The notes below the pieces were generated by a model. It worked only from the letters and a program-made list of their open reading frames with translations. It had not been told where the DNA came from and made no database searches. Shown in pieces: positions 1 to 64,000 of a DNA stretch of 64,000 nt. Source of the stretch: Bilabrum cf. latius (taxonomy: Eukaryota); assembly GCA_965178125.1 (NCBI GenBank), contig OZ237768.1, positions 186,001 through 250,000 on the forward strand, given 5' to 3'. Numbering within the stretch: position 1 is the stretch's first letter; every line of letters begins with the position of its first letter. Made by a program: the position numbers and the translations under genes.

Positions 1-1
1 C

Positions 2-3000
2 GCATTGCGCGCCTCTGTGTTCCAGGGCGGGTCAGTTGGCGGTGGTGGTCTTGGACCACCGATGGGGAGAGAGGGTTCCATGCCGCTGCAGCTGTCTGGT
101 TCGAGGCAGTCGTCAGCCAGGGACGTGCTGGCCTCCCAGTCTATGGCGGGCACGTCAGGAAGCAGAGGGGTGGCTAGTGCAGATAGGTAGGACGTAGTGG
201 CAGTCGCAGCTTGCGTGAATGCATCCGTGAGTCGCCTTCTAGGGGGAGAAACGGGCTGGAGGGAGCTGGGTGGCAGCCCAGAGGAAGCAGCCGTGGGAGG
301 ATACGCGCGGCATGCCGCACTCGCACATGCGGTGTCTTTCGTTGCGAGCGTGGCTGCCAGCAAGTCTGTGACCGCTGATCGTGCGGCAAGAGCTGCCGCG
401 GTGGACGTGTGTGAGCATGCGGTGACTGTTTTGCTGGAGTCTCTCGGCAACGAGAAAGGCAAATCGAGCAGCGGAATGCAGCATGCAGCGCTTGGGGATC
501 AAGGCAGTGGCACGGCTCGACTCATGTTCCTGCTGATTGCTGCGGCTAGGCTGCCCGTGGATGTGGCGGCCTTGCATGGGCCTGTTGGAGGGGCCCGATG
601 CTACCTGGACAGGCAAGGCCGGTTGCCGGCGTGGGTGTTTGCAGCTCAGGATCGTTGCTTGGAGCGGGTTCTCGGGTACATGTCTCCCACCGGGCAACAG
701 GAGCTGCTGCATATGGCGGGGCCAGCGGGAGCTCGGCTACTCGCCACCACGCCGGGGATCGGGCCTGGCACCAAGCCCTCCATGCCGTCTCGCCTTGGGC
801 CAAGGTCGGTCAGTAGCGGCAGCGGCGGCATCAGCGGGTCTTAGGGGAACCTCAGCAAAGGTTCCTGGAGGCCATGTGGCGCTGCTGGCGCTGGTGGCCC
901 GGCTCGCTCTATGCTGCAAGAGCTGGTGGCGATGCTGGTGCAAGGCGAGGGAAGGTAGGCGCAGCTAGAGGCAGGCAGGCTCGACCCCATGGCAGATGAT
1001 GCTGCCGGCCTAAGCAATCAAAGTGGGATGCGCCTGCCCTGGGCGAGGCATAGGCTTGCTTCTCAGCACGCAGGCACCGGGAGTGCTCTATAGCCATAGC
1101 CTGGTGAGGCATCGCCGACCACTCGCTGGTCCACATCGCGCGCAGGAGGCGCCGTGGAGCAGGCCATGGTACAGCTGCGGGCGCTGGCGGCCCGGCACGA
1201 AGACCCCGACCGGTCTGAAGGTGGGAGTTCTCGCTCCGGGTCCTCACGTTCCCTGCTCCGTCGGCTTTTTGGAAGACATAGCACGCGGCAGGTCGGCGAG
1301 GACGAGCAGAAGAGGGCAGCTGGCACCGGTGGCGGCGTGGCTTCCCCCGTACAAGGACAGCGACCCCCTCGCGCTGCGGTTGGCGCGTCTGCGCGGGGCC
1401 ATGGCGCGCAGCTTCGTGCCCTGCAGCAGGCAGCTGTCATGCACGTGGTGGCAGTGGCACAGTGCGCTTGCGGTGTACTGCAGCTGGCATCCCGCCCTGA
1501 GTGCCCAAGAGACACCGCGCATTCCACCTGCATGCAGCTGCTGTCGGTGCTTGGCTCCGACCTGGCGGCATGGCCGGAGGTGCGCAGGGCGAGGGAACAA
1601 GCCAGGGCGTCTGCGCGGAGGGAGGGAGCGGTGCGTCCGCCCGAGAGCACGCGGATGTAGCGGCGGCATGCAGAGCTCCGCGCCGCATCCCATCTCGCCG
1701 TCATGGGCCACATGATGCGGGCAGCTTGTTCCCTGGCTGGCCGGTCCAGCCGGTCCACGATGGCGGTGAATCGTCTGCTGGAGTCAATGTACGTGTCTCC
1801 ACAAGAGGAGGCCAGGGACAGAGGCAGCCTTGGATCGGTGGGTCGGATGGATGGACCCGCGCCGATGGTACCCCGTGCGATCGGAGAACTGGCACAGGCC
1901 GTGGTGGCATCTGGGGAGCAGTCGAGGCACAGGCGCCTCGTTCTCCTCTAGACCCTGCTGGAGCGGACATGCGAGCTGACCACTCGGTTCGCAGGGGATG
2001 CTATCGCTGCCTACGGTCGACCCGCGGGGAGTATCATGCAGGATAGGGCGATGCAGGGGGCAGTGGCAAAGGCTCAGGGAGGCAGATACCTTGGATTGAA
2101 TGCCGCGACGTTAAGCATGCGCGACATAGCAGCTGCTGCGTCATCATCACCCCGGTCGCGCCCCGGTGCCCCAGAGAGCATCAGAAGCCGGGCATCTCTG
2201 GGGCGGGGGGAGCTCCCCGCGCTGGAGACGGTCGGTGAGGAGCAGAGCAGTGCGTTGCACCCAGGGAGCGGCAGTCCTCGAGAATCTGAGACAGGCAGCG
2301 ACGCCTGGGATTCTCCGGGGATTGGGGGGGATGGGCAGCTGTGGGGCGAGGGCGCTGGCGTGGACCTGATAGATGCAGACAGACCGGCCGGCGCACCATC
2401 AGCAACTGCGGTGCAGCACGCAGCAGTGGCAGCGGCAGCGCTGGCTGCTGCGTAGCTCGTGCCATCTGTGTGCCGCATGCTGGAGCTGGAGCAAGAGTTG
2501 CTGGATGGCCTTAGGCACGAGCACAGGAGCGGCCCGAAACCCGCTGCGTTCTCCGATTCCGTTGCATGCATGCAGATCTTCAGGCGGCTTTGGGTAGGAA
2601 TATCCGTGCTTCGCTTGGACGATGGCAGCATATGGGGGCACGAGCTGGCCGATGCTTGCCGCCGGCTTGCGTCGCTGACCCCTCCCCTAATCCTGATGCG
2701 GCAGCACGGCGATTTGGAACAGGCTCGGCGCGCTGGTGGGCGCGCAGGACGCGATGGAGGCCCCTCGCCCGATGCTCGAGGAAGAAGGAAGCGAGGGGGG
2801 GGAGTTGGGGGCGGGTCGGAGGCAGAGTCCAAGGGTGGGGATGGGATCGATGAATAGGAAGCCCGCCCATCGAGACACGGTGGTCCCGACTCGTCACACC
2901 GCCCAAGAGACCTGCAGCTGAACCTGGATCTGCTGATGTCGTCTTCCATGCTACCAGAGGGGCACGGGATCAGCCAGGGACTCGTACAGAGCCAGGTACA

Positions 3001-6000
3001 GAGGTTGTGCAGCGTGCTAGGCCCGCGAGATGCACCTCTCCTACAGCAGCTGCCCCCCTACGCGCTCGTGTTTGCGCTCTCCGTGTGCAACTTGGAGATG
3101 CACCGCGCCTCGCTGCCCTTGATCGCCAGCAGTGGTGCCACCAGAAGGAGCTGGCACTCGTCACCCACGTTTGTCGGCGTGTACCGCGTGCTGAGGCGCT
3201 GCTGGCCCGGTTCCATTGGACTGCTGCAGCCCATCTCCGGGGTTGACGACCACCCCGCTAGGTTCCTCCTGGCGGCGACCATGAGCAGGATTGCAGACCA
3301 CGTTTTTGCTGGGTTTGCGACCAACATGCACCGGTATCCGTGTGGCCACGAAGGAAGAACTCGGAGCCTAAAGCACCACGTGGCCTTTCTGATCGCCACC
3401 GCTGGTCATAGGTTCGTTACCGTGCGAAGAGCGGCTGCGAGGCATCTGGTGCTGCTTGTAGAGACGTTCCCAGAGCTGCTGTGCGACGAGGATATCATTC
3501 AGGTGCTGCTTGGCACCGTAGATGCGCTCGGGCTCAGGCTTCTAGCGAGCAGCAGGGAAGAGTGGGGAGGCTCCTGGCCACCCATGAGCAGGGTCCCTGG
3601 GGCGCTCTCTACCTCCCAATCGTTCGCCGGGCATCAGGCTACTGTGGACGGGCGCCGGACGGGCTCTCTTGGGGTCAAAGCGGTGCCGCACGGCGTATCT
3701 GTGGATGGCTCGCTGTACGAATCAGAGCGGAATTCAGGGCTCCAGAGCAGGGCCGGTGTCCCGTGGGGCAGCGTGCTGGTGGAGGGGTCGCCCTTCGCAG
3801 TGCAATGCCCCACGACCCGTGAAGCTCTGTCTCTGGTGTTTGCAGATGTGGCAGAGCTGGCCGCGCAGCATCTGTCCCGGGCCCACGCAGTTGCGCCGAG
3901 GAGGCTGGCACAGCTCGCTGCACGCAGGCTTGCTCGCAGGGCTAGCGGCATGCTCCCGCCCACACAGGCCTCCATGAGCATGGGCGATGCCGTGGGACAC
4001 TTTGTCGCGACCCAGGGAGGGCATGCAGGCTCATCTGCGGCCGCGGCGCGGGTGGGTGGCGCGGGCCAGGCGTCAAGCGGAGCACCCGACCCGTTGCTGC
4101 TGCGGGCCCCATCGGATGCGCTCCTCTCGCAACCCCTCGGTTTGGTGAAGCGGCTGGTAGGAGAGAGGGAGCGCGTTGCCAAGACGATCCTCGCGTCGCA
4201 AGGGGGGCGCGTGCTGCGGAGCAGCATGCCGTTCGGGTGGGCAGCAGCGGCACAAGGCGTACCCACACCCGTCTTCTGGAGGCAGTCCTCTCTGTTGGAG
4301 CAAGTCGCGGTGGAGAGGCGATTGCTTGCGGGGTATGGCATGGAGGGAGCTGGGGAGCAGGGAGCGGGGGCCAGGAGTACCAGTTTGGTCACCTTGGGCC
4401 TATCCAGCTCGGTGCTAGCCACCGTTTGGGGCTCGCAGGCCCCTGCAGAATCCATTCTGCCGTCGATCGTGGACAGAGCAATGGCTGTAGGCTAGTACAC
4501 AGGTGCAGCTGGCGAGGTGTCAGTTGGTCAGCACGGCGGAGCTGGCGGTCTGCTCCCACCCAGGTTCGTGGCTCTGGCCGCCATGCCTGCCATGGAGCGC
4601 GCTGCAGCGCACTGCACCTCTCTAGTGGCCAGCTACCCTTCAAATGGCGTGAGAGCAGCCGGAGCCGATGCCCTGGTCACTCGTCCGCTGCGCCGGACGG
4701 ATAGCCAGACCACAATGAGCGACTCTGTGCGAACAGGCACGGCACCGGGCACGGTCACTCGAGCACCCAGCGTGAAGGGGGGCCAGGGATCCGTCGTCGG
4801 CCCCGGGAGGAACCGCCGACAAGCCACTGCAACGGGAGCTGCCTCGGATGAGCAGCTTTTGAAGCGGCTGGTGCTCTCCAGTGCGCCGCCCACTGCAGTT
4901 GGTGTTGCGATGGATAGGACACCCGCGGTCGATAGCCAGCGAGCGCAGCTCCGTGCGAGGGAGGTAGGGATTGTGGAGGGTCTGTTCCGTGCATTTCGCA
5001 CCTCTGGGGTCGGCGCATAGCAGGTGGAACGAAACGCCCGGTCGAGTGCAATTGCTGCTGCCAGTGGGCCGGCAAGCAGTAGCATATACGCCTCGTTCAT
5101 CCGCCAGACGGTTCGCCGGGCCCGCGAGGAGGCCTTGGCCCTGCATGAGACTTTCCTGCGCCGCGCAGGTCTGTCCTTCAGCAGTGCTTCCGGCAATTCA
5201 GCACCGTACGATCAAAGTGAAACCAGTGCCAGCCCTGGGACGGAAAGAGCCCAGGAGTCAGCTATCTCTAGCCCTCGGAGGGGCAGGTCTAGACGGGGTT
5301 CTGTGGCAGCAGCCGGTATCGGCTCGAGCACGAGCTCGGGCATGGCCTCACCAGTAGCACCGGAAGGTCGCGCCGGGTATTCTGGTCTGTTCTCCAGAAT
5401 GGCATTGCTGTCGATCTGCATTCGGAGGGCGGCGCAGAGGAACCGATCGCGCATGCAGGAGCGCACTGCAAGCAAGGCCCTTGAGATCGTGGACCGTCTG
5501 GCTGCGCTGGTCGTTTTCTCGGGTGGGCGAGACGAGAGGGGCCAGGAGCTCTTTGGAGACCCGAAGGAGCACAGCGGGGTAGAATTACTTCGTGAGCAAG
5601 CGCTGGAGCTCCTAGGGTGGATGCCAATGCTGTTGCCCATTCCTGCTGTGTCCTACAGCTGCGCCGATGCGTGGTCTTATGTCGGGGCGAGTGGGGCGAC
5701 TGGCGACCGCCTTGCGATTCTGAAGCGCTCGTGCAGCGCTCTTGCAGCGAGTGCTCATCTCGCAGTCGGGGCGTTCGCAAGCACGACTGCCCGGAGGGCT
5801 GAGGCAGGCGTGGCGGGCATGCAGCAGTCAAGCGCTGGGTCTGCCTCTGCCCCGTCGTCACCGACCGACCTGATGCGCGCCCCTCTATCTGAGGCATCGT
5901 ACAGCAGAGACGTTGGACTCGATGCACTTGCAGCGTCTGCGCAGCCAGTTCGTAGCATGTGTCTGCCTTCTCATGACCTGGACGGGCCGGTGGCTGCTCG

Positions 6001-9000
6001 ACTCCAGTACGCGCCGCCTCACATGCGGGCGGAAGAGGGTCAGGACGTGATTGCGCGGCCGGAGATCCACCGCCCCTGGTTTACGTACATTGAGGAGGAG
6101 CTTAGGGTGGCAGCGCATGCCTGTCCCAAGTCGGTGAGGAGCATCGCATTGGCGCTATCGTCTTGTGCCTAGGAGGGGTGGCGCGTGGAGCAGTCATCGC
6201 AAGGATTTGACGTCGGGATGCGGCTTGTGTTCACTGGCTTGCTGGCCATGCACGCAGAGTACTACAGGCAGCAGGTGGATTTGGGAGGCAACGATCCGGC
6301 AGTCGAGCGCTAGGCCGGCTCTCCGACGGAGGCAGCCGAGCCAGGTTCCAGTGACCATGGCCCGCCCTCTCTCGTGTCATTCGCCGCTCTGGACCAGATC
6401 GGGGTGCTTCCAGTGGCTGGACCTGCCCATCATCGAGCTTCTTTGCCGGCAGATCTGCTGACGACAAGGACCTGCGATGAAGACCGCAGTGCCGCGAGTG
6501 GTGCTGGCATGGACCTGCTGTCGCTGGATGCCCCCAGGACCATCCCAATCTGCTTGAGATCCCAGGCACCCACGGCTCTGCACGCCTCACTCTCCGGTAA
6601 ATCATCATCCCACGGGGCGCTGGTCATGCAGCCGCCCGCCACGTCAAGGGCTGGCTCGGTGGGCGTAGGTCAGGCGGTCAGCTCACCCATCCCTGTCCGC
6701 AGGGTGTCCTCGATCGGGTCAACCACGCGGCTCAAGCACTGGACGTCGGGCTCGGATGAGATGGCAGACTTGCTGGGCCTGCGTCCGGTCCTGTCGCGGC
6801 AAGGGAGCAAAGACCGGAACCAGCTCGCCAGGCGGGGATCGGTCGAGCTCGTGGCCACCCTGCGAGCGCACACAGAGGCCGAGTCTGCGCCTACTGTCGG
6901 CGGGGACGGCGCTTCGATGGGAGAGGCATGGCAGAACCTGCAGCCAGACTGGACATCCGCAAGGACCCAAGGGCATGCAGGTGCTGGGCCGCCTCGCCGT
7001 GGTGGTTACATTTCCCCGACGGCGAACGGGCCCTCTAGATCGACTGCTAGGCGGACTGCGATTGGCGTGGGCCTAGCCGCTGATCTAGGCCGCATGCGAC
7101 ATGAGTTGCTTGACTGCGGACTGCGCCTTTTTGCCGGCCAGCCGGTCTGGCATGAGCCGATCATTGGCGGGAAACGGGTGCGGTAGCTGCATGCATACAT
7201 GGCTGCTGTGGTGCGGCTGCTGTCGCTCGATGCCTGGTTCTTGAGAGCCCAATCCGTGATGGAACGACCAGAGCCAGGTTCATCAAGACGCGGTAGCAAG
7301 TCGTCTTCTATCGGCACCAGAAGGTCAAGCGGACGTCGCTCGTCAGGGGCATGGACTCACTCAGTCATGCCGCCGTCAGCGCAAGTGCTTGCCTCCAATG
7401 TAATCGCAGCTGCCCGTCGCTTTGGCGCGTCTGGACCCCACGAAGACACCGTGCCGCTTGGTGGTGATCACCTGGTGCACCCAGAAGCGACGGGAGCAGT
7501 ACCACCAGCCGTGGATAGACTTGTGCTATCGCTCAATCAGCCTCCTGTACATCCTGGAATGGCGGACGGCTTGCTCGGGCAGCTGGGCAGGCCCTCAGGC
7601 CACTTCAAGGCAGCTCTGAACACCCAATGCAGGCACGCGGCAGAGAGCTCCGACCTTCTGTCCCTGCTGATTGCGCATGAGAGCGACCGCATCGTGGCAT
7701 GGCATAACCCCTGTGGGCACCAAGAGAGGGGCATCCCCGGTCAGGAGGAGGTGTCGCTCGAGGACGCCTGCAGGAGATGTGCAGCCGAGGCCAGATTGGG
7801 GGGAGCGGTGGACGCAGGAGATCTGCACGGTGATATCGGTGGTGAGGGAGCGGCGAGCGGTGCTGGTGCTTCGGGTGGAAGCGCATTCGCATCTCTCGGG
7901 CGTCTGTTGCGGGACGGAGAGTGGGCGGTTCTAGCCAGGTGTGCGGGCAGGCACTCGCAGTCTTTGCTCGCGGCCGTGTGCGGTCGATTCCCCGGCGTGA
8001 CACCGCTGCGAAGGCATGCCGTGGACCACTTGGTGGACGTGTCTCTGGGTTAGGGGAGCGGGAATCACGGTGACATGCCTGCCATGCGGGACCATCGTGC
8101 GGCCGCCATGCTGATGCTTCATCCTGCACTTGCGCTGCGGGCGCGTGGTCAGGACCTGTCAGCAAGGTACTACCGAGCTCTACAATTGCGCAAGTCAATG
8201 CTGTGGGGCGACGAAGCCGCTGGCAGCGGGGCTGGCGGTGTCGAGTCCAGAGGAGATGCTGGACCCGGCGGTGATTTGAAGTCGCATGGAAGCGCTGCCA
8301 GCCTTTCAGCAGGCCAGCAGGATTCGTTACCTGCTGCTGCCACGCATGCTCACCACAGGGAGCCCCGCACCGGTGTGGATCGCCTTGGCATGTCGGTGGC
8401 CCTGGGTCTAGTGGGCCCTGCAAGCGCTCAGTTCGCCGTCAAGAGCACGATCAAGTGTCTCGCGCGCCGTGTGACCGGGCGGCTGCTACGGGCGGTCGGT
8501 CGGGCCCCAGCCACATCCATGGCCACTGCCCTTGGCCTGCTGGCGCGTGTGTCCCACCGGTCAAGCTACCGGTCCTCGCAAACGGCAGCGCCAGGCGTGG
8601 CGGCGTGGACGGCTCGGTCCATTGCCAGCGCTGCGCCGTCGCTGGTCGCCCTGGTGGTGCCGCAGGTCGTGCAGGCGCTGCGGTCGGACACGCACGGGTA
8701 TTCCAGGAAACTTCTGGTGTCTGCCTCCAGCAAGACGGCCATCACGGCGCACCAGGTCCTGTGGGGACTCGCTGCCGAGTCAGAGATCACGGCGGCGACT
8801 GATCCAGATGCGGAAGGAGGCCACGGAGACGCGGCAAGCGCAGGCTCTGGGCATGCGGGGCGCGGTCGAAAAGGAGACGGCAGTGACGCGCACGGCTTTT
8901 AGAAGCAGCTACTTGGCCAGGATTCGCTACCCCGCGCCGCCAATCGCGTGGCTGCCGCAATCCTGGCGTCGCTGGGCAAAGAGGAGCGCGCCTCGTTTCA

Positions 9001-11803
9001 CATACAGTACGCATTCTTTGACAGGGTGACTGACATATCCCGGAGACTCAAGGAAGAGTGCTCATCCAAGCCGGAGCGCAACAAGCACATTGCCACCTGC
9101 CTCAAGCAGCTCTTCCGAAGGGTCAAGGAGACCCGCATTGACGCCGTGAACGCCGCGATTGATGCCATGAAGGAACAGCAGCCAGACCGCACCAAGCAGG
9201 CACTGGTGCTTCGGCACGGTCATCGCCTTCCTGTACCAGGAACTGCGGCCAAGCGAGGAGGAGCAGGGGCGCCAGGGCCCCACGGCAGGAGCAGCAGGTC
9301 GGGCAGCATGGTCCTTCCGTTCATGCAACCTGGTGGCAGCGGGATTGGGATAGGATCTGCCACAGGCGGACCTGCCAGCACCCAGTTTGCAGGGAGCTCT
9401 ACGGGAGGCTCGAACCCCCTCCGTCGTGCATGCTAGGGGCACGACCCTGTCTCCAGAAGGGAGGTCCTTGCGTTCGCTTGGGCTGCGGGGGGCCGGCGGC
9501 AGGCAGTCACCAAGGTGACTGAGGCAGCCGCGGCGGAAGCGGCACTGGCCCAGGGCCATGGCCAGATCGTGCCCGGAAGCGATGGGCACAGGCAGGCAGC
9601 CGGCAACTTGGCGGTGCTGCTGGAGGACCAGCTGCTGGCGCGGCACGGGGGTCTGCCGTCCACCTTCGAACCTCTGCTGTACATGCCCACGCAGCCTTAG
9701 CTTCGCGTGGTCTCGGTCGTGATGGACAGCGGGCGTGCGATGCAGAGTGCAGCCAAGTGCCCCTTCCTGCTGCAGTTCAAGGTTACCCCCTATGCCGGCC
9801 CTCTGATGGAAGAGGGTGGGACTGAGGCAGGAGCTGGTGCTGATCGAGAGACGCCAGCAGGGGGTGCAGTCGTTCGTGGGCCCGGCCCGGGGCCCGTGGT
9901 GGGACTGGCGGACTTGGCCTCGAGTGCCTCCAAGCGGTCCGTGTGGCAGTCGGTCAAATCCACGGGGTCGGTGCTGATGCTCAAGGTCAGAAACAGGATC
10001 AACGCGGCGTCGGCGCACATCAGCGTGGGAACGACGTCGGCTGGTCGCATGATGCGGTCGGCCATGGGGGCAGTGCGGTCGAGGATTTCACGAGTCGGGG
10101 GGCGGGATTCCCAGGCCGTGGAAGAGGCGACGAGGGCGAGGGCAGGCAGCAGTGTGGTTCGGGCATCTGTCGGCTAGGCGCGTGGTTCGGATAGAGACAG
10201 CGACTCTCACGCTGGTCAGGGCCCTAGCATCGACTCGCCCCGTTCTCAGTCCAGGTCCTCGGTCGGCCCTTCGCGCTCTGGCAGCGTGGCGCCTGTGGAG
10301 GGTCTGGTTGGTGACACTGGTACCGGTGCTGGCGCTGGTGCTGGGGCCGGAGAGATCGATGAAGAGGAAGAGGCGTGGCCCTACAGCGCGGAGGCCCGTG
10401 AGCTGCAGCCCGGAGCCAAGGACAGGCAGCGCAGTGGCAGGGCAGCCGGCCCTGCCGAAGGCTCTGTCGGGGTGGAGGTGGAGCAGGGCGGTGGTGGTGC
10501 GAGGGGCGACGTCGGTGCTAGACCACCGCTGGAACTGGACGATGTCGATCTTGCCATTGGCATCGAGGCAGATGGCAATGCGGCGGGCGCGGGAGGCGGG
10601 TTGGGGCAGGGTGGTGTCGCTAGCGGGACAGGGACGTGGTTCGGGGGCAGAAGCAGCGGCAAGCGCGTCGTCGATGAAGCGCAAGACGAGGAAGAAGACG
10701 ACGGCTTCGTTGACAATGCAGCCGTGGATATTGAGGCGCGCGAGAGCTTTGCCAGAGGAAACAAGCGCAGGCAGGATGCCGCGAGGCAGGCAGCGAGTCA
10801 GTACGGCGTGACGAGCGGAAGATCCACCGGGTATGGCCACCGGAGTGGGCGTCGCAGCCGCCGCCGAAGTATGTCAAGGTCAGGCTCCATGGCTGCTGCA
10901 GCTGCAGCCGCGTCTGCAGGTTCTGGCGCAGGAGCCGGGAGCGGCGGAGCCATGCACATGTCCATGTACCGCCCCCTGACGGCGAGCGCAACCGCCGCCT
11001 GCATCTTCAAGGTGTTTGACGACTGCAGGCAGGATGCACTCGCGATTTAGATCCTGCGGGCGCTGCAGGTGCCATTCTCCCAGGCCCGTTGCGGGCTCAG
11101 CCTGACTCCATACTCCGTCATTCCCTCTCGAGTAGGCAGCAAACGGGCTGAAGGGGGCATTATCCAGTGCGTGTCTAACGCCAAGTCCCTCGACGAGATC
11201 GGCAAGGACGGCAACGCCAACCTGTACCACTACTTCCGGCAGAAGTTCGGGAGGGTGGACGGCCCGGCCTTCGAGGAAGCCAGGCGGCAGTTCGCGGGGA
11301 GCATGGCAGGGTACGCAGTGGCGACGTATCTGCTGTGGGTGAAAGACAGGCACAACGGGAACATCATGGTGGACGGGACCGGCCGACTGATCCACATCGA
11401 TTTCGGATTCTTGCTGGGCATCAGCCCGGGGGGCAACCTCGGGTTCGAGCAGGCTCCCTTCAAGCTGACGTCAGACATGGTGCAGATCCTGGGTGGTGAC
11501 CCGGGGACGGACCTATACCAGGGCTTCCAGGAGCAGTGCGGGAGGGCGTTCCTCTCCGCGCGGGAGACAATGCCGGCCATCGAGGCGCTGGTAGGCGGCA
11601 TGGCAGACTCAGGCCTGCCGTGTTACCACTTCCCTGACACGATGGGGAAGCTGCACCAGAGATTCGCGCCGGATGCGGGGCCCAGGGAAGCAGCCAAGGT
11701 GTGGAGGGGCAAGGTGGAGGAGTCGCGCGTGTCTAGCACCACGGAACTGTACGACGGGTTCCAGAAACTGACCCAGGGCATCCACTCGAGTGCCTGGCAG
11801 TGA
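2..11803 (+). CDS. PI4KA: Phosphatidylinositol 4-kinase type III alpha (PI4KA/Stt4-like); 5' end outside the window; >3,900 aa with TAG read as Gln
   Basis: One frame (start mod 3 = 2) is open from base 2 to TGA 11801-11803 apart from 20 TAGs: 188, 842, 956, 1091, 1097, 1658, 1949, 2453, 2855, 4493, 5018, 6170, 6311, 7184, 8051, 8900, 9434, 9698, 10175, 11048. Motifs: VPQVVQALRSD, YMPTQP..SGRAMQSAAKCPFL, IFKVFDDCRQDALAI(TAG)IL, SMAGYAVATYLLWVKDRHNGNIMVD, IHIDFGFLLGISPGGNLGFEQAPFKLT. Confidence 0.93.
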
Positions 11804-12128: not shown

Positions 12129-12132
12129 TCTA

Positions 12133-51993: not shown

Positions 51994-52779
51994 TCACAGC
52001 ACGAGCCCGCAGTATTCCGACGACCTGTACTTCTTCTTGAGCCCCTTCCACTGCACCAGCACGCGATCAGCGACCGTGTAGTACAGTATCTTCCCTGTCA
52101 TGCTCAGGTCGGCCACCCGAGCCGCGCTCTCTACAAACACAATGCCTGTGTTGCTCACACCCACCAGTCGAGCGAGCCAAGCAGCAAAGGCCAGGGGCAC
52201 GCATGTGCCTGGCCCATTCAACAGAAGCAACGCCGGTCTGTGGTAAAATACAATTCCAATGGAGTAAATCGTGGCATACGCGGTCATTGCTGCCGATGTG
52301 ATCCAGCTCTGGCCCACTTCCCTGCTACGAGGCACCACGGCCCAGCTTGCTGCCGGCTCCTTCTCAGCGCTCTTTGTGGACGATTTACCCTTCGTTCGCC
52401 TGCTGCTTCCTTTTCTTCGAGACTTTGATGGCACAGGATCAGACAGCACAGCTTTCCCAATTGGTCCGGAAGGTTCGAGCCTAGCCGCAGCAAGCACCTG
52501 TCCATGTGATGTAGAGTCGGTATCAGCATGGACCAGCACAATGCGCGCAAAATCATTCACGAGTCGATCACTCGATAAGATGGATATCATCTCTGCTGTA
52601 TGCCCGCCCGAACCGAGCACGCTCATCAGTGTGCCGGGTGATTTGGTGCCTACCGTAATTGGAGGCTTCCTTCCAAAACCTACCAGCCTACGGGGTAAAG
52701 AGAAGACAAACCGAAGTGCAACTCCAACACCAACAAGAAATGCTAGCATTCCCATGAAAACGCTGAGAAGAGGGTCCAT
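51994..52779 (-). CDS. ALG14: UDP-GlcNAc transferase subunit ALG14, ~261 aa (alternative start 52845)
   Basis: VLGSGGHTAEM, VPRSREVGQSW, RPALLLLNGPGTCVP, IVFVESAARVADLSMTGKILY..ADRVLVQW. No TAG; ends in TGA. Confidence 0.93.
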   Translation of the reverse strand: MDPLLSVFMGMLAFLVGVGVALRFVFSLPRRLVGFGRKPPITVGTKSPGTLMSVLGSGGHTAEMISILSSDRLVNDFARIVLVHADTDSTSHGQVLAAARLEPSGPIGKAVLSDPVPSKSRRKGSSRRTKGKSSTKSAEKEPAASWAVVPRSREVGQSWITSAAMTAYATIYSIGIVFYHRPALLLLNGPGTCVPLAFAAWLARLVGVSNTGIVFVESAARVADLSMTGKILYYTVADRVLVQWKGLKKKYRSSEYCGLVL

Positions 52780-52892: not shown

Positions 52893-53855
52893 ATGTCCAG
52901 CAAGCCGAAGATGGCAAAGTCGAAAGGGAAAGTTCGTGTGGGAATGCCTAAGGCAGACTTGTCGCGGATTAGGAATAAAGTCAAACGAAGCTAGGTTCTG
53001 GCTCAGCGCCAGGGTGCTGTCAAAAAGGAACGAACAGAGTTGAGAAGGAAGCGCAAAAGAGAGGAGTCAGAGGCAGTAGCTAGGGGGGAGCATGTTGTCA
53101 AACGAAGAACCTTGACGATTGATGACATGAGGGTTGCTGACGATACCTTCGTAGCTGCAGACGACGAGGAGGTGAATGCCGACGAAGCAACAGACGAGTT
53201 TGCGAGGTATTTCTCCGGAGAGAAGAAACCCAACATAATATTGACGACCAAGATGCGGCCAAGTCGCCACCTATTTCCGTTTGTGAGCGAGTTGCTGCAG
53301 CTACTGCCTGGTTCTAGGTTCTTCAATAGGCACAGGCACCCGCTGAAGAAGATATGCGAATGGGGAGGCAAGCGGGATTTCACGCACGTAGTCGTAGTTG
53401 GGGAGCATAACAAGAAGCCAAGCTCTTTGCTGGTGGTTCACTTGCCCGAGGGACCCACTGCCTTCTTTCGGCTCACGAGCGAGCAGTTGGGCCGAGAGAT
53501 CCACGGGCATGGAGTGGGTACCGACCACAAGCCGGAGCTGATCCTGCAGAGGTTCAACACTCGATTGGGACACAGGTTCGGCCGTTTGCTGGGCTCGCTG
53601 TTTCCCCATGACCCGGACTTCATCGGCCGCCAGGTAGTGACATTGCACAACCAGAGGGACTTCATCTTCGTCCGCAGGCACAGGTACATTTTCACAGAGG
53701 ACGGGAAGAAGGCCAGGCTGCAGGAACTGGGGCCTAGGTTTACCATCAAGCCGCAGTGGCTGCTGGCGGGCTCCTTTGACCTGAGGTTTGGCGAGTTCGA
53801 GTGGTTTTTCAAGAGGCACGACATGGAGACGTCGAGGAGGAAGTTCTTCTTGTGA
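52893..53855 (+). CDS. RPF1: Ribosome production factor 1 (Brix domain), ~320 aa
   Basis: Starts at ATG 52893. IRNKVKRS(TAG 52992)VL links the only upstream ATGs to the Brix domain: DEFARYF, HLPEGPTAFF, PELIL..FNTRLGHR, GRQVVTLHNQRDFIFVRRHRY, LQELGPRFT, SRRKFFL-TGA. Confidence 0.93.
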
Positions 53856-53951: not shown

Positions 53952-54983
53952 TCACTCGACCCTGTTGCCCGCGCTCCCAGCCTCGCCCTACCCGCCTCTG
54001 TGACCCTCCTGGTCCTGCTCGTCCTCGAAGGTGAACGTGGACCTGCCGTCCACTCTCATCGTGGCAGCACCCCCTTCCCCGTCCATACCCCCCGTTAGGG
54101 GACCACCACTCTCTGGTACCTCTGACCCCGTTCCTGCCGACCCGATCGACCGCGTGGTTGTCACGGCAGGCACCCGGCCTCCCTCTGCCCCCGAATCCTC
54201 GCCCGCGCCTCGACCTCCGCCTCCCCTCGGGGTCTGAGTGTCGATCCCACCGGGCAGCTGTCCTGCTGATGAATGGCCGCCGCTAAGCGGTAAGGACGCT
54301 TGCACAGTGCTTGGCACCTCGCCCGCCGTGGCCTTTGCTCCAGCTGCGATGGTGCTGCCAGCAGATGCCTTCGGGCTCGGCAGGCTGGCTTCTGCTCGGC
54401 TCCTCGCGAGGACCCACTTGCAGCCGCAAAACGTACCGTCTACTGCTTGATCCAACACGTTACTTGCAAATTCAGAAGCTCGTTTCTTACGCGAGCTGCC
54501 TTCTAGTGTCGCAAGGCGTGCCGACAAAGCCCGCATTGCTGCCCTCGCGCTTGGTTCACCAGAGGATCCACGAGACTGAAACACAAGAGATGCCCTGACA
54601 CCTTCGTGCTTGCCCACTACGACATGCTCGCAGGGATGCGCCACAAAAGCAGCTGTTCCGGACGCTTCGGCTTGTGCAGTGCTGGATTCGGTTTCGCTCA
54701 CTGTTGGGAGGGAAATGCGGCCCTCAGCAACAGGTAATTTCGGAGGCACAGAGCCAGTATCGACGGGGACAGAGTCCCCAACAATGGCGCTCTCAAAGGA
54801 ACCTGCAGACAAGGTCTCAGCAAGCTGCAGCATTGCCTCTGAGACTCTCGTGACCATTTCAGCGGAATGGGAGGCCGGTGGATCTTCGTCCCTCCATGAC
54901 CAATCAAGAATGGGAACAGTCTAGTCAACCGATGTCACTGCTGAATCATCAATGACAAGTCGGAGGGGTGCAACCATATCCAT
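53952..54983 (-). CDS. Hypothetical protein, ~343 aa
   Basis: ATG 54983 to TGA 53954-53952 with 2 TAGs (54923, 53990). No family recognised; start uncertain. Confidence 0.6.
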
Positions 54984-55109
54984 GGCACACGGTCCGGCGC
55001 CTGGTTTGCCCAGCAGTAATCCCCTTCATAAACCACACTCAACAATGCTCCATAATTCAGTTTATTTCGCAAAAGGATTTCGTGTCACTGTGGTACGACT
55101 TGGGTCGCC

Positions 55110-58100
55110 ATGGATGGTGATGGTTTATATGATGATATTGACTAGATTCTAGGCCATGCCGCGGAGGGCCAGGACATATCTTCCAACGATCTTGAGCTGA
55201 CTGGAGCAGATCCCACTTACGACGCTGGTTCAGCGACGCAGTCAAGGCGATCCAAGGTATGAATGGCAGACTATACCACGCCCACACATATTATCATACT
55301 TTGTTCAGTTCGGATTGTGTTCTTCCTGATACTTGCAATGCCCGCAGCAACGACGCCAAGAGGCTGCAGAGCAAGCTGCGGGTTTCCTGCTACAAGAGGG
55401 TATGCTACTTTCTGCTCTCGAGCTGCACTAGGAGATCCGAGAGCAAGCTGGTCCAGATGCGCTAGAGATTATTCCGGCACTGAGCGACGTGTTTGACAAT
55501 GACGACCAGCTCGTGCAGCTCAGCCAGCAGGCTGATGCTGCAGAGGCTGCGGCGGAGCGGCAACTGCTCGAATCCGTTGCAAGCGGTGGACAGCATCCCG
55601 ACCTCCTTGCCGTCGCTAAAGTCAAATCGCCGTTCTCGAGCGGTGGACTGGAATCCTCTCTTGAATCTCGCCAGCAGCGGATCGCTCTGCTCGAGTACAA
55701 GCTTAGGGCAGCCGAGCGAGACAAGAAGCGCCTGCAGAAACGATTGCAAGCGTGAGACTATTTTTCTGTATCGAGCTTGTAAAGTGGGAGGCGCTGTGTA
55801 CCATGCGCCATTCGTTGCTCGGCCCAACAGAACCTCACCTCCACCCTACCCGCCTCACCCGCAGATCGGAGCGAGCAGCATCCCAATCCCGAGCAAGTGC
55901 CCCGCAGCACGCTCAATCAGCTGCAGCGCAGGGCATGTCCAAAGGAGCTCCTTCAAACGAGCCGTCTTCTGCGGCGTCCACTTCTTCGTCGCAACCAGCC
56001 CCCGAGGCAGCGCCCCCCCCCACTGGTCCCCCCTCTGGGGACGAGCAGAGGGCCCTGGACCAGCTGGTGCACTCGTATCTAGTAGGTAGCGGCAGGGAGC
56101 TTGCCGCGGCATCCTTTGTGGATGAGGCGGGGGTCCGTCCGTTGCCTGCAGGCGGGGTGGGGGCAGAGGAGGGTGGGGGATCCTCGGGAGGCCGGGCGGG
56201 TGACTTGTCGCCTGCCGCTGCCGCCATGCAGCAGGCGTGCAGGGCCGGACTGGTCGCGGTTTTTAGAGGGGCCGTGAAGCCGTCGGAGGAAGCCGCGCGC
56301 GCTGCAGCCGAGGCTGGGTCGATGAAGCAGGAGCTGGAGCAGCTCAGGAGGCGAGTGCAGAGGGCAGAGCAGCTGGCGGAGGCCGCGGCAGAGGAGAGGA
56401 GGACGTGGACCGACAGGCAGCACCGCGCCGTGGAGGACGCGGCGGCCAGGGCAACCGCGGAGACGCGCAAGAAGACCCAGCGCTCCATCCTGGAGAAGAT
56501 CAGGAGCGAGGGACTCAAGTCCGTCGGCCTGAGTGCAGCTGACGTGCCAGACGCAGAGCCCGCTGAGGACCTGGGCGGGGCGGGCGGTGGGTCTGGGACT
56601 GGGACCAGGCTGCAAGATCTAGCACTGGTGGAATCGTTCGAGGCAGATGGGCTGCTCGTGGGCACAGACGCCATCGTGCGCGCAGCCGACGGCGGGGCCT
56701 CGCGGCGCAGGCAGCGCTTGCGGCGGCGAAGGTCGTCAGGAGGAGACGAAGACGAGTTTGAGCTTCAGGGCTAGGGAACAGGGGTACACGGGAGCACGGT
56801 GTCCGCTGCCATGCGCATCGTGCGACTCCTTGCATCCACGGTCCCCGAGCTGTCCAAGCACGTTGTCACCAGGCACAGAGCGCTGCTCTTCCCACTGTAT
56901 GCCGCCACTGCCGCCGCGCACCCATCCGCCTCTGATCGGCGCGCGCTCGTAAGCGGGCTGCTGACCTCGGTGAAGAGACCCAGGCCGCACGAGCGCGCGG
57001 GCATTCTGAGGCAGCTGTCCTCGCTGGCGCGCGCAAGCACCAAGGCCAGGACGCCCGCGTCTGCCTCGGCTGCGGCGAGCGCTGCTGGCCCAGGCGCATC
57101 TTCAGGATCGGGTGGCTCGTCTGTCCGCTCTTCACAAACTTCGACTCACGGTCGGGATCAGATCGATCTCCAGTCCGACATATTGCCGCAAGTGCTCGCC
57201 AGCACGTCTATGGGGACGAGGGAGCGACGTGCCGTGGCGGCGCAGGGGTGCGGGGTGCTCGCCGTGCACGTGGGGGCGCGGAGCTGCGACCCTCTGCTGG
57301 CCACTTTGGCCATGCTGGCGGATGACAAGTCGGGAGTGGTGCGGCGGGCGGTTGTGCGCGGAGCCGCGTGCATGGCCAGGTGTTTGCTAGAGAAGGACGA
57401 GAAGGTGCAGGACGCGCTCAGGGCCATCGAGGCGAAGGAAGGCGGGGTCAAAATCAATTCTGACGAAGCCAAGGAAGAGGAAGAGGAACCTGAGAAGACA
57501 GACGGGGAGAAGGATGCGGAAGGAAGCACGGGCAAGACAGAAGCAGACGGTCCAACCACAGGAGAAGACTCAGATGCTGGTGCAGGTGCAGATACAGGAG
57601 GTGCAGGTGCAGATACAGGAGGTGCAGATGCAGAGGAGAGCAAAGAGGCCGAAGAGGAAGAAGAAGAGTACGGGGGCATGTCGGCGGCAGAGGCCCGCGC
57701 AGAGCAGCAGGCCATCGCGCGGCAGTTCCAGGAGCTCGGCGATCTGCTGTGGAAGTTTCTCTCTGGGGAGGCGGACGGCAGCGCGAATCCGGCGATGCTG
57801 GCGGATGGGTAGGGCATTGGGCTGCCTGGGGTGGGGAGCAGCGGCGCGGACGGGGCTGAAGAGGGTGAGGACGAGCCTGACGATGACCTCAGGGAGGAGC
57901 AGGCCATCGACGCGGCTGTCAAAGGTGCCAGCGCGGCGGTGGGTTGGGCCACCGCGCAAGCAGTGCATGCGGGCGAGGAGGCGGCAAGGCTGGTGGCGAA
58001 TGGGCCGGTGGTGGCTGGGCTGCAAGGGAGCAAAGGCGCGGGCATGGTAGGAAGCAGGGCCGGCCGCAGCCCCGCCGCCTCCTCCCAGGAGCTCCAGTCG

Positions 58101-61100
58101 AGCATGCGGCCTTCTGTGCTTGCGGCGGAGCAGTTGCTCCCAGCCATGCTTGCCTGGGCGCACAGGAGAGGTGCCATGTGGCACTCGCAGGGTGTTCTCG
58201 CCACGCTCGTCTCCCACATCGAGGACGCTGCACGAGTGGCCTGCGCCGACGGGGGCGGCTCGTTGGGTGCTGGCGCCGTGGGCCGGGACGGCAGTGCCGG
58301 TCGATCCAGAGCCTCCACTGCCGCGTCTGAGATGGACGGCGAGACGGCCGAGCAGGCCAGCGGGCACGCTCAGCTGCTGCTCGGGGCACTCTCCACTGCA
58401 TTCGGGCCCGTCAGGCGGTACGTGCTCCTCGGTGGGTTCCGTGCGGCAGCAGTGGTGCGAGATGTGGGTGATGTCGGGGATGAGTCCGGAGCGGGCACGC
58501 CTGGAGTCACGGACGATGCCGGCAAGTTCGAGTACTTTCTGTCGAAGGAGCGTCCCCCAGACGACGTGGCTCTGGCGCTGCTGCCGACCGCGGGAGACCT
58601 GGGTCCGCAGGAGCGCCTCAAGTACATCAAGGCGCGAGCGGGTGCCATGGCGGACAGCCTTGCGTGCCTGCTGCGAGGCACGGCGGTGCTGTGGAGACGC
58701 GAGAGGGGCGCCGATGGCGCGCTCTGGAGACCGGCTAGGTCCAGCGGTGAGCTTCGGCGATGGGGCGTAACGGTTCAGTGGCCCAGCTTGCGGTGGATGG
58801 TAAGGAGGGTGGTGTGTCCGCTGCTGCGGGTGGCATCTGTGGTGCCCAACGCGACCACGTCGCACCGTGCACTGCGAGAGGCGATGGCGGGCACATTCCG
58901 GTGTCTCGCTGACTCGTTCGGCACCTCTTTCACAGCGAGGGCCGTCCTGCCCGTAGTGGCTGCCTCGCTTGGTCTCCCTGTGGAGAGGGTCGGTGCCAGT
59001 GCAGCGAGTGGGAGCGGGCGCCGCGCGGCCAGCGGAAGCGGCGTGGCCCCGACCGAGGCCGCGGACGTGTCGTGGGCTCTCATGCACCACGTGCTGCTAG
59101 CTGGGAGCGAGGAGGCCGGCGGCGGCGGCAGCGGCGGTGCTGGTGTTGGTGCTAGTGGAGAGGGGCAGGGCAGGAGCAGTGCGCCGGATTTGGCGCTGGA
59201 CGAGACGCCTAGCGGAGCGCTGGGCAAGGCGCATTTCGGCGGGGGTCACGGGGTCTTTGGCCTGGGGCAGGTAGACGCAGTAGGTGTCCAGTCAGCCGAC
59301 CGCGTGGCGGGCTCGGATGGCCCTGGGTGGCCGTCTGCCCTCCCCGAGTGCGCGTGGATGCGCAAGGCAGGGGCTAGGCCCAAGCGGTCCGGCAGACCCT
59401 CGACCTCAGCGGCCGGTGGTGCTGCGGCTGATTCCTCCGTGCCTCCTCTCGGCGAGGAGTCCATGGGCGGGGCATGGCACGCCGACGCGCTGCTTCCCGT
59501 GCTGGGAGGTGGCATCCTCGCCGCGCCCTGCCTGCCCAAATCGATGCAGCAACAGGTGGTGCGCGAGCTGCTGGTGCGCCTCGCGATGGAGAAGGAGGGC
59601 TGGACGAGGTCGCAGCTGCCAAGGGTGGAGGACTGCATCGCGAGGATCTGCGCCCCGGTGGCCGTGCTGTGGGACCAGCTGCAGGACGGCGACAGAGAGG
59701 ACAAGCAGGGGGACTAGAGCGCGGATGGGAAGACTGGCAGCGGCAAATAGAAAGGAAGCGGCGGGACAGCTTCCGCCGGGGACGACGAGCCGCAGCGGAT
59801 GGCACTGGCCGCAGCTGCGTCTGCCCAAATCGCCGGCATCGGTGTGCGAGTAGGCGGCGGGCTTGGCCTGAAGCGGTTCGGCGCTACTCCTCAGCTGATG
59901 GCACAGCCAGCCGCCAGAAAGGCCGCGCTGAGCGCGTGCAAGCGAGTGGCCACTCAGGTGCTGCAGCTGCTCCAGCGAGTGAGCACAAACAGGGACCCCA
60001 GCACTCGAAAGGTGGTCGCCTCGCTGCTCCACGGGCTCATCGCGGTCCTGCCCGCAGAGCTTCTGGTCAGCCACTATCTGCCCACGCTGGAAGGCCTGTG
60101 TGGGGAGACAGAGAAAGACGAGAGCGTGCGGCTGGCCGCCCTGCGAGCGCTGGGTGGAGCCTACAGCGCGGCTGCACCTGCAGTGGTGCTGGACCGCGTG
60201 GGCGCGTGCATGAGGGACCTGCTTGCCAGCGGGCCGGTGCGCGTGGTGGTGGAGGCTCTCCGCCTCATCATGCGGTCCGTGCCCGACGCAAGGCGGGACC
60301 TGCGCGACGGTTTCTTGCTCGACAGGCTTCTTGAGGTCTCGAGGGGCGTGGCGGAGGCAAGCAGGGCAGGCCGGGAGGCCATGGAGCAGATATGCGGTGC
60401 CATCGGCGATGACGATGGCAGGCAGGACGACGTGAGTCGGGCGGCGGAGGATGCCGCTGTCCAGGCCCGCGACGCAGCGGTGATGGCGGCGGAGCCGTGG
60501 AGCGGAGCCAAGTGGGAGGAGCTGGAGGAGGCAGCCATGGCTTGTCTCGAGGCCCTGCGCATGTACCAGACTGCAGTCGTGCGGGGTGACATGCCGGCTG
60601 AGTGCGTGGATCTGTGGAGACAGGCGGTCAAGTCGCTGCTGGACGAACCCGGCCTGCTGGACGCTGCCTATGGACAGGGGTACAGGGCACAGGTGCACGA
60701 GGCGCTGACTGGTGCAGGCGGCGGAGCAGCTGCAGGGCTTGATCAGGCGCCTGCCCTCAACGGCTCCAGTGGCAGTGCGGGTGCGAGTGCAAAGGCGCGC
60801 GGCCAGGGCATGGACGGCATGGCCGTGGGCATGAGTGGGTATGGCTCGACCGTGGGCACGCCGGCGACGGCTCCCAGGTCCACCGGTGGAGCAGCGCCAT
60901 CCACGGGCGGGCGGTCAGCGGGCGGGACACCCATTGTGGGCAGCGGTAGTAGTGGGGGCGATGGTGTGTCAGACTCTGGGCAGAAGCCGCCCGTGGCCCG
61001 GTCGCTGGCTGCATTCCTTGGAAAGCAGCCGCCTGCCGTCCAGGGCGGGGGGGTGAGTGGGGCTTCTGGCCTTCCCGCTGAGGACGGCGAGATGGGGGCT

Positions 61101-61211
61101 TCAGGTGGTGCCGAGGGGGCGCCAGGAGGCAAGAAGGGTTTCTTCTCTCGGCTCGGCAGCCGGATGTTTGGGAGGGGCGGCGATGGGGACTAGGCGAAGC
61201 CTGGCACATGA
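55110..61211 (+). CDS. RELCH: RELCH/KIAA1468-like Rab11-binding LisH + coiled-coil + HEAT protein, ~1,965 aa; exons 55110-55256, 55348-55751, 55865-61211
   Basis: FLLQEGMLLSALELH(TAG)EI, RIALLEYKLR, LisH EQRALDQLVHSYLV...ASFVDE, HP..SDRRALV...VKRPRPHERAGIL, DDKSGVVRRAV. Two GT-AG introns, 7 TAGs (55143, 55429, 56772, 57810, 59715, 59748, 61191); ends in TGA. Confidence 0.85.
55257..55347 (+). other. Spliceosomal intron, 91 nt
   Basis: AAG|GTATGA...CCCGCAG; frame-consistent. Confidence 0.8.
55752..55864 (+). other. Spliceosomal intron, 113 nt
   Basis: GTGAGA...CCCGCAG; removes an in-frame TGA and joins to the LisH frame. Confidence 0.8.
57579..57628 (+). repeat. 21-bp coding tandem repeat (GAGADTG x2 plus partial)
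   Basis: ggtgcaggtgcagatacagga occurs twice, followed by ggtgcaga. Confidence 0.8.
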
Positions 61212-61520: not shown

Positions 61521-63811
61521 TCAAGTATCCTCCACGATCTGTTCAGTGTCCGCCGCGCACGCCACGAGCCGGATGAATGCCACATGGTGGACTCCAAGCA
61601 TGTTTCGGATCATGCGCACGAAACGGGCCTGCCGCATCAGCCCGTCCCACCCACGCCCCTGCATTGCCAGCAGGAACAGTGGAGTCAGCGTCATTACAGA
61701 TGGCGTGTGTTTGTTGTCTCCACCAGTCGCTGCAGTTGCCTACCAGGCAAGTTTGCCAGCCTGCTGGTGACCATGGATTATACTGCTTGTGGCACCACTT
61801 GCAGAAGCTGTCGCAGGCCCCGAGACGGTCGATCTCAACCTTGCCCCGATGTCCGGCAGGAATACCTCGGCTGGTTGCAGCGATGACTCGGAGTGTATCT
61901 CAGGTCTGCCAGTTCCAGTGCTGGCAGCTGCTGCAGTCAGCAAGTACTCGCCTTTGGTGCATCTTGCGGCCGTATCACCCGACGTTGCACTATGCTTGTC
62001 GTGCGCACCTCCACTGGCAGGTGCAACAGCGGCAACTGATCCAGACCTGGAGTGCCCTGCCTGCTGGGCATAGCGCTGTGGCTTCACCGCTGTGGCTGCA
62101 GTCCACTTCGTCGATGGCCTCCGAGTCATCAATGTGGCCTCCTCGCCGCCTAGAGCACCTACCCTTTGCTGTGGGGCAATATCGTCACTCGATTTTTCCT
62201 AGGGACCTGCGATGGTCAGCGGTGCAGCGCCGTTTGCTGGCCTGACAGCTGGGCATGATCTCGAGTGCCGCGATGCCTCCGGCCCCATGCGCAATGCACC
62301 TTGGTGCACGGCCGAGCCCTCCAACTCGGCGAACCCTGACAGCTTGCTCTCACTGCGGCTGCCCTTCGCGTGCAGATCGGCCTACTGGTTCGAGTAGCTG
62401 CTGCCAGCAGTTGCGGTTGCAACGAGGCCACAGCCCGCCAGGCCAGGGTCATCCCTGCGGTTCGCACTGCACGCATACCTGCAGCGCCGTCCATTGCTGA
62501 CCAATTTCTTGAAGTGGAACATATCACTAAACATTGCACTGGGCAGTCGCACGGCCGGGACAGGTCCCATCGACGCCAATGAAAAACGACTTGAATTCTT
62601 CGATACAGCGGACCTTGGCATGCTCGGACTGTGCGGAGGTGGGCCACCCTCGCTGCCAGCTTGTTCGATATTAGAAGCACTCATCCGTGCAGACACGGCG
62701 CCCACACTATTTGCATCGCCTGAAATTGACCCATGATGCTCGTCTGTCTCTGCTGCTGCCGGTGCAAGCGGAGGCTTGCCGATATGGCCTTTGAGAGGTT
62801 GTGAAGTCGATCGCTTGGGGGCAGTCAAATCCTTCCTGTACCAGCTGAGCCTAGCCATGGCTCTCTCGTTGATTTCCTTTCCCTGGTCTACGCTCCATGA
62901 CTTCTTCAGGCATGACTTGAGCACTGGATGCTCGCCGCTTGTGATTCGCAGGGGTGATGCTCGGCTGATGTTTGCGAGACCGGCCGCCGGCGAGGCAGCT
63001 GGACTAACCGAACCGCTGTCCAAGGCAACAGAGCGCAGTGAAATGCGGTCCGAGCTATCGCTGTGTTCATTATCAGCATCAAAACCACCGACCACGCGCC
63101 TTTCTATAATGTATGACTCGGTAGGCAGCTTGATGCAGCGCATAAGTCGGGCCTCAGCCTCTCGGTCGATCGATGCTGGGGACGGCACGCCTGTGCTCTA
63201 CGTCCAGAGGCGCAGCTTCCGAGGGACCACCATCCCAGGCACATCTGCACGAGCAGCCATGCACCGTATTCCATCGGCGGGACCCAACATGTCCTTGGCG
63301 CACGGTGCTCCTTCTGCAAATATCGTACGGAGCGCGCGAAACCATGCCTGCACAGCGCAGGCCTCATCGCGACCGGTCGCAAAGAACGGATTCTATCGGT
63401 CGCTCTTATACGCAGCTATCATCCAGACGGTTACAGCGCACTCCGTTTCAGCCACGTGGACATTTCCGGAGGCCCGGCGTCTCTCCTTGACGCCATCAGC
63501 TGAACGCGAACAAGCAGCAGTTGATGATGCTTTCAGCGCAGCACCTGCCGCCTGATCATTCGCTGAAGCACTTAAAGGCTACGAGAATGTACTATTATTG
63601 TTTGGAGGCGCTTCCGGAGGCCTCCCATCGCTATATCTTTCGTGGATCTGCACAAGTCGGTGGGAACAGTCGGGCAGATTGGCCAATTCCACATCTAATC
63701 GTTGTGTTGCTACCACTAAACCACACTTAATTTGATATGCGGGTATTTATCTTTGTTTACTTGCGCCGGAAAACTCACTGAGGCTGTTGAACTAGAAACT
63801 CCGCACCCCAT
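61521..63811 (-). CDS. Hypothetical protein, ~719 aa, with N-terminal MGCGVS myristoylation/palmitoylation motif; exons 63811-63779 and 63647-61521
   Basis: 33-nt first exon MGCGVSSSTAS, then a GTGAGT donor and TTGTGCAG acceptor. The 131-nt intron contains the only in-frame TAA. It has 6 TAGs (63581, 63395, 63200, 62384, 62201, 61742) and ends in TGA. Confidence 0.7.
63648..63778 (-). other. Spliceosomal intron, 131 nt
   Basis: GTGAGT...GACTTGTGCAG, AT-rich, phase 0. Confidence 0.7.
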
Positions 63812-64000
63812 TGCTGTGGCGCGAGCAGATTAGATTTGGCAGACAGATCGTGTCGGGATCTGTGTCACAGTGGGTTCACGCCACCCAATGCCACTACAAT
63901 TGGCTGGCCAATAGCTTCAAGAATCCTGATGAGATTGGCTCGTGCCCAAGACCTGTCCCTGCAGGCGCTGTGCCTTTCGAATGGGTACGCGGAGTCTCCG

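Follow-up and report, generated by a model that had tools for sequence, protein, structure and literature searches.

Nuclear genetic codes in which UAG and UAA have different meanings are rare, and each of them informs how eRF1 and tRNAs distinguish UAG from UAA. Such split codes are reported for an uncultured rhizarian, Iotanema, Scotinosphaera, Protocruzia and some phyllopharyngean ciliates (PMC11687900). In Iotanema spirale (Fornicata) UAG encodes glutamine and UAA is kept as a stop (PMC5304391; PMC9161772), the eRF1 of this organism is described as changed in the GTS motif (PMC9161772), and UAA is reported as the dominant stop in the two UAG-only taxa that were described first (PMC5304391). 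Phyllopharyngean ciliates and Protocruzia tuzeti are likewise reported to read UAG, and not UAA, as glutamine, a reassignment that according to the same survey arose independently several times; UAG alone is assigned to leucine in the rhizarian exLh and to serine in Scotinosphaera, and one uncultured ciliate is listed with UAA as lysine and UAG as glutamate (PMC11687900). Codes in which UAA and UAG (together UAR) both encode glutamine are described from ciliates, Hexamita, Streblomastix, ulvophytes and Amoeboaphelidium protococcarum (PMC11687900; PMC6299283). Here we analyse the genetic code of a 64,000-nucleotide stretch of an assembly of Bilabrum cf. latius (GCA_965178125.1, contig OZ237768.1, positions 186,001 to 250,000 of the forward strand), referred to below, at its full length, as the window. 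We consider it about 85% probable that the window comes from the nucleus of a eukaryote with a compact, GC-rich genome and few introns, in which UAG is read as glutamine, UGA ends every gene seen and UAA is not a sense codon.

The open frames of the window depend on the reading of TAG. Read with the standard code, the window has no stop-to-stop frame of more than 1,058 codons. With TAG as a sense codon the longest frames are 7,336 (29826-51833, + strand), 3,934 (2-11803, + strand, open at its 5' end), 1,902, 1,849 and 1,129 codons, and with TAA or TGA as a sense codon the maximum is still 1,058. Twelve genes, distributed over both strands, were read as 14 open reading frames (ORFs) with 20,116 codons, among them 83 TAG, no TAA and 14 TGA, each TGA being the last codon of its own ORF. 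The initial annotation had counted about 85 in-frame TAG in some 20,000 codons and had stated that every frame break is a TAG; the count is confirmed, and the breaks are indeed all TAG in PI4KA (20/20) as well as in Raptor (26/26). When these genes are read in the remaining two frames of their sense strand, 40,204 triplets hold 74 TAA, 273 TAG and 603 TGA. With TAA and TGA together at 677/40,204 triplets (1.7%) off frame, frames thousands of codons long that lack both are far beyond chance; for the frame of 7,336 codons the probability is about e^-120 by our own arithmetic, and this frame cannot be random. The genes and codons of the window include the following.

2..11803, + strand: PI4KA, 5' end beyond the window, 3,933 codons plus TGA, 20 in-frame TAG
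8900..8902, + strand: TAG at PI4KA residue 2967 (HGFxKQL)
11048..11050, + strand: TAG at the glutamine of the kinase motif DDCRQDxLAxQ in PI4KA
29826..51833, + strand: Raptor frame, 7,335 codons plus TGA, 26 TAG
51994..52779, - strand: Alg14, coding sequence without TAG, TGA stop
52893..53855, + strand: RPF1 (Brix), 320 codons, TAG at 52992-52994, TGA stop
53952..55025, - strand: ORF without Pfam match, 2 TAG, TGA stop
55110..61211, + strand: two-intron gene, spliced ORF of 1,965 codons from the first ATG, 7 TAG, TGA stop
61521..63746, - strand: ORF of 741 codons without Pfam match, 6 TAG, TGA stop, almost no RNA cover

That essential, conserved genes carry in-frame TAG, as had been claimed initially, holds for PI4KA, Raptor and RPF1. 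In Raptor, four collinear blocks common with solved Raptor/Kog1 structures lie in one frame and flank three TAGs. The first few TAGs of this frame may precede the true start codon. Residues 1-1,000 of the Raptor frame gave no matches when used as a homologue query, probably because low-complexity words swamped the candidates. In RPF1 a conserved N-terminal motif with the invariant residues K29 and R32 precedes the TAG at codon 34 and is in frame with the remainder of the protein, which argues for read-through of this TAG. The further assertion that RPF1 has no ATG near the start of its Brix domain proved wrong: codon 79, which precedes the Brix match by about 45 codons, is an ATG, and the public gene call P0002 (242 amino acids) starts at this ATG.

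The TAGs are also found in sequencing reads. Runs were searched with sampled words of 50001-60000, and the word share was 1.00 for four runs of one study (X1-X4) and 0.89, 0.46 and 0.24 for three runs of two other studies (X5 and X6; X7). Contigs of four runs were compared with 44001-64000, the last 20 kb of the window. The contigs of the DNA run X4 had zero differing letters over this part. No run with the searched stretch is recorded as RNA, and the RNA status of X5 and X6 is derived from splice joints: both runs have two GT..AG joints that skip 91 and 113 bases (about 55255-55345 and 55752-55864), and X4 is without them. For X5 this is joined by contig ends that coincide with gene borders and by a cover that is nearly gone over 61343-64000. 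X5 and X6 are therefore taken to be RNA. Their contigs span all 15 in-frame TAGs of the covered genes (44001-61263) with zero differing letters, namely five TAGs in Raptor, one in RPF1, two in the gene at 53952-55025, where both are covered by X5 as well as X6 contigs, and seven in the spliced gene at 55110-61211, which once its two introns are removed is free of TAA and TGA over its whole length. The RPF1 TAG is covered by an X7 contig as well, and the X5 and X7 contigs are identical over RPF1; within Raptor, X5 contigs are identical to the window over 44001-48053 and 48134-51221. Only two variant sites are listed on 44001-64000, none of them at a TAG. The six TAGs of the gene at 61521-63746 are nearly without RNA cover.

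No further convincing splice joints are listed on 44001-64000, where the remaining joints are long skips between repeats, and the genome looks intron-poor. At about 48080-48180 and at 59115-59140 each of the four compared runs has three to four times its usual depth and many contigs join or break; these are copies of a short GC-rich coding repeat common to many places in the genome. As spliced RNA keeps 15 of 15 TAGs unchanged, base-calling error, editing to CAG and removal by splicing are excluded for the part of the window from 44 kb onward. The initial annotation had proposed looking for the TAGs in reads and RNA and had named editing of the mRNA and splicing-out of TAGs as outcomes that would speak against a sense codon; neither was seen at the 15 covered TAGs, all of which are unaltered in the X5 and X6 contigs, and its central claim, that this nuclear genome uses UAG as a sense codon, is thus supported by frame lengths, codon counts and RNA.

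The residue inserted at UAG is best read from invariant columns. For PI4KA, 147 sequences were well aligned among the 150 best homologue representatives. The TAG at 11048, in the motif DDCRQDALAIxILRAL, stands in a column with Q in 145/147 homologues, and human PI4KA also has Q here. At the TAG of residue 2967, Q is found in 4/6 well-aligned homologues, the three closest included. A second near-invariant site, and with it the strongest independent evidence, is provided by a relative, the metagenome contig L001 (2,303 bases, 51% GC), which carries Alg14 and RPF1. The two genes are divergent both in the window, with a spacer of 113 bases (52779-52893), and in L001, where the spacer is 116 bases (about 932-1048), and the RPF1 genes share 87% identity at the protein and 74% at the nucleotide level. 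The RPF1 frame of L001 (1048-2010) is terminated by TGA and contains 5 TAG, of which two are opposite CAG in the window; one of the two is Q254 of HNQRDF, which is Q in 25/25 rows of alignment A1. With a TAG at the near-invariant glutamine of the PI4KA kinase motif and another in HNQRDF of L001, the alignments indicate that UAG is glutamine. The residues neighbouring TAG showed no useful enrichment of Q or of other residues.

As a control, 80 RPF1 loci from metagenomes were checked for in-frame stops. No in-frame stop was present in 76/80, and several TAGs within aligned sequence were found only in L001; in three other loci the stops fell at alignment gaps, except for one TAG in L074. TAG is commoner in RPF1 of L001, with 5 TAG, 6 CAG and 0 CAA, than in RPF1 of the window, with 1 TAG and 9 CAG.

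UAA does not share this meaning. CAA is in regular use, with 144 CAA versus 702 CAG in the 20,116 codons, and the A-ending fractions are 17% for CAR, 0.238 for GAR, 0.231 for AAR and 0.145 for TTR. If TAA were glutamine, about 14-18 TAA would be expected beside 83 TAG, and none is seen (P <= 3e-6), which agrees with the earlier argument that regular CAA use predicts TAA codons under a code in which both are glutamine. The zero is not circular, because TAA read-through joins no two long ORFs and only adds 86, 43, 7 and 4 codons to the 5' ends of four ORFs. TAA therefore does not encode glutamine in the window, the use of UAG differs from that of UAA, and the decoupling of the two is statistically supported. 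UGA terminates translation right after conserved C-termini: the TGA of RPF1 follows ...RRKFFL, the match of PI4KA to human PI4KA extends to <=12 residues from its TGA, and the Pfam match of Alg14 reaches position 170/171, 2 residues before TGA. Two ORFs that do end in TAA, at 12168-12698 (+ strand) and 12695-13279 (- strand), have no family match and lie in a local duplication, and they were not accepted as evidence of a TAA stop.

Described split codes suggest how the two codons could be told apart. A tRNA-Gln with anticodon CUA, which would pair with UAG and not with UAA, may decode UAG, and eRF1 may have lost the recognition of UAG, by analogy with the account given for the UAG-only taxa; CUA is described there as the only anticodon that reads UAG while ignoring UAA (PMC5304391). 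ARAGORN found no tRNA genes in the window, and there were no Rfam matches in it.

Several observations weigh against a UAG that is glutamine and set apart from UAA. The TAG at PI4KA residue 3233 stands in a variable column, the RPF1 TAG of the window is in a column where, among 24 homologues, 12 have E, 7 have Q and 5 have some other residue, and the three TAG columns of the symporter gene (SSF) are variable or within inserts and thus uninformative. In L001 the three other RPF1 TAGs are opposite AAA, AAA and AGG of the window and a TAG in Alg14 is opposite CGA, and the window RPF1 TAG is in turn opposite GAA in L001. Glutamate, lysine or arginine, or an ambiguous reading of UAG, would account for these columns, in which K and R are each met twice. 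Such a reading is nevertheless very unlikely in view of the two near-invariant glutamine sites occupied by TAG, and Q/E, Q/K and Q/R are ordinary conservative exchanges of the kind that would be expected for glutamine at variable columns. With respect to the reads, X5 carries the automatic label 'RNA? (probably DNA)', and the DNA runs X1-X4, which have the full word share, may be the window's own assembly data and hence not independent. Apart from this last point nothing was found in favour of TAGs that are not translated as such, whether through base-calling or assembly error, pseudogenes, editing to CAG or unrecognised introns. Contigs of X5/X6 and X7, from two other studies, have no differing letter at the TAGs, and spliced RNA retains them. 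As the breaks are exclusively TAG, never TGA or TAA, and L001, with 74% nucleotide identity, carries TAGs of its own at different sites, decay or random error is unlikely, and an artefact of any of these kinds is hardly credible.

The terminators raise a different objection. TAA ends 0/12 genes in the window and 0/2 in L001; all of them end in TGA, and a UAR = Gln code would lead one to expect TGA as the sole stop. Under an ordinary code of this type (NCBI table 6), UAA and UAG would both be glutamine, UGA would be the only stop and TAA would be missing through GC bias; TAA is in fact rare overall, with 101 and 128 on the two strands of the window. This is unlikely, however, with 0 TAA versus 83 TAG where even the lowest A-ending fraction (14.5%) leads to the expectation given above, and with 74 off-frame TAA in the same genes, which at an equal rate would give 37 in frame. 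The two genes of L001, at 51% GC, add a weak point in the same direction with 6 TAG and 0 TAA (P about 0.05-0.18, own arithmetic). The initial annotation had proposed a table-15-like code with UAG decoupled from UAA; the decoupling has statistical support in the absence of in-frame TAA, whereas the TAA-ended genes that a table-15-like code implies were not encountered. The 12 + 2 genes are few enough to be compatible with rare TAA termination. If TAA ended a quarter of the genes, 0/14 would have a probability of about 0.02 (own arithmetic), and TAA is either a rare stop in this lineage or hardly used at all. It is conceivable, if doubtful, that UGA is the only terminator and that UAA is vacant, being avoided and in practice neither sense nor stop. 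If so, the code would comprise 62 sense codons and a single stop, with one codon left unassigned, and it could be a caught intermediate on the way from the standard code to UAR = Gln, with UAG captured first, in a lineage that branches deeply and has two or more diverged members. UAA may also still be a stop beside a UAG that is read as glutamine.

The position of the lineage is less clear than its code. The best named RPF1 matches come from stramenopiles (Tribonema, oomycetes, brown algae, Blastocystis), with identities of 46-54%, and chytrids, nucleariids and animals score alike with them. A tree of the named RPF1 rows, the window and L001, which is of a single gene and includes no alveolate, rhizarian, haptophyte or excavate, places the latter two on the stramenopile side against Amorphea and one glaucophyte, with a Shimodaira-Hasegawa-like approximate likelihood ratio (SH-aLRT) support of 96; in this sample the approximately unbiased test does not reject a grouping with opisthokonts (p-AU 0.279). 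When unnamed rows are included, both fall outside the clade of named stramenopiles, together with the unnamed proteins P0003 and P0004. Of the 20 PI4KA matches examined, the nearest are unnamed, and the named ones are Symbiodinium sp. KB8, Anaeramoeba, Blastocystis and fungi; the named proteins in the clusters of the closest matches have 37-47% identity. The stramenopile origin that was assumed initially is thus no more than possible, a stramenopile placement being compatible with these comparisons. As P0003 and P0004 are called at full length, presumably with the standard code, the change may be confined to the clade of the window and L001.

The window contains 12 closely packed eukaryotic nuclear genes on both strands; its GC content is 64% overall and 56-70% per 4-kb bin. 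Pfam matches were obtained for PI3_PI4_kinase (8.5e-34), SSF (1.8e-57), Raptor_N (9.1e-17), Alg14 (1.5e-49) and Brix (9.8e-24), the PI4KA kinase domain matches human PI4KA at 3.9e-54, and five ORFs are without a Pfam match. WD40-type matches near the C-terminus of Raptor are weak and all below the Pfam cut-offs. The remaining genes are as follows.

13658..16873, - strand: SGLT-like sodium:solute symporter (SSF), 3 in-frame TAG, TGA stop
17076..18919, - strand: ubiquitin-like/RRM gene, two overlapping ORFs in different frames, 3 TAG, TGA stop
18862..24567, + strand: ORF of 1,901 codons without Pfam match, 12 TAG, TGA stop
24662..27068, - strand: EGF-repeat gene, ORFs 24662-26224 and 26088-27068, 1 TAG, TGA stop
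27268..29520, + strand: low-complexity ORF of 750 codons, 3 TAG, TGA stop

The overlapping ORFs of the ubiquitin-like/RRM gene are probably due to an intron, a frameshift also being possible, and those of the EGF-repeat gene, which switch frame, suggest an intron or a frameshift. Conserved proteins of the window are hugely extended by low-complexity inserts rich in Ala, Gly, Ser and Arg, over which the frames continue uninterrupted (29826-51833 and 2-11803). The Raptor frame has 7,335 codons versus 1,287-1,608 residues in the solved Raptor/Kog1 chains, with its conserved blocks scattered from about residue 330 to past residue 6,400, and the closest relatives of PI4KA in public collections are likewise very long (3,019 to 5,788 amino acids). 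A local duplication within 11928-13820 includes the symporter gene's 3' end: 12174-12473 repeats 13521-13820 at 99%, a second copy of the last approximately 110 codons lies at 12314-12694 (- strand), and 11928-12128 repeats 12744-12967 at 82-91%.

Gene callers that use the standard code cut these genes at every TAG, and the resulting stumps are found in public protein sets (P0002, P0125, P0207). RPF1 appears there with 242 or 271 amino acids versus 320, and P0207, a PI4KA piece of 236 amino acids, has its end precisely at the TAG of residue 2967. Unless TAG is read as glutamine, the genome will therefore be wrongly annotated and wrongly used in phylogenomics. The new case is one of a GC-rich non-ciliate lineage for which a public genome, RNA runs and a diverged metagenome relative are available, and with these the origin of the change could be bracketed.

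Among known organisms with altered stop codons, Amoeboaphelidium is reported to read TAG and TAA both as glutamine (PMC6299283). It was considered as a source of the window and ruled out, as its genomes are reported to have about 40% GC and its proteins to be deposited under NCBI accession numbers (PMC10608142), and no Amoeboaphelidium protein was among the RPF1 and PI4KA matches. With UAR = Gln codes in general the window shares the change from stop to glutamine and TGA as the sole observed terminator, and it differs from them by zero in-frame TAA in 20,116 codons. With exLh and Scotinosphaera it shares separate meanings of UAG and UAA, whereas the residue in the window is glutamine. Phyllopharyngeans and Protocruzia have the same reassignment as the window but are ciliates, and the gene arrangement of the window is probably unlike that of a ciliate macronuclear genome. 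In the literature searched, which did not extend to supplementary files and most subscription-journal papers, we found neither a nuclear code change in a stramenopile nor a non-ciliate lineage of high GC content that combines UAG = Gln with TGA stops. NCBI translation table 15 has TAG as glutamine and TAA and TGA as stops; it reproduces the open frames of the window, and the TAA termination that it includes is not observed there. The closest likeness is with Iotanema, where UAG is also glutamine and UAA is not, in the nuclear code of a non-ciliate protist. Iotanema uses UAA as its dominant stop, whereas no gene of the window does and TGA ends them all, and nothing was seen that links the window, with its high GC content, to Fornicata. 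A code in which only UAG has become glutamine is therefore of a kind already known, and the window adds a rare further case. TGA as the only terminator seen is possibly its distinctive trait, and if the lack of TAA terminators were genome-wide, it would separate the code of the window from the UAG-only codes described so far.

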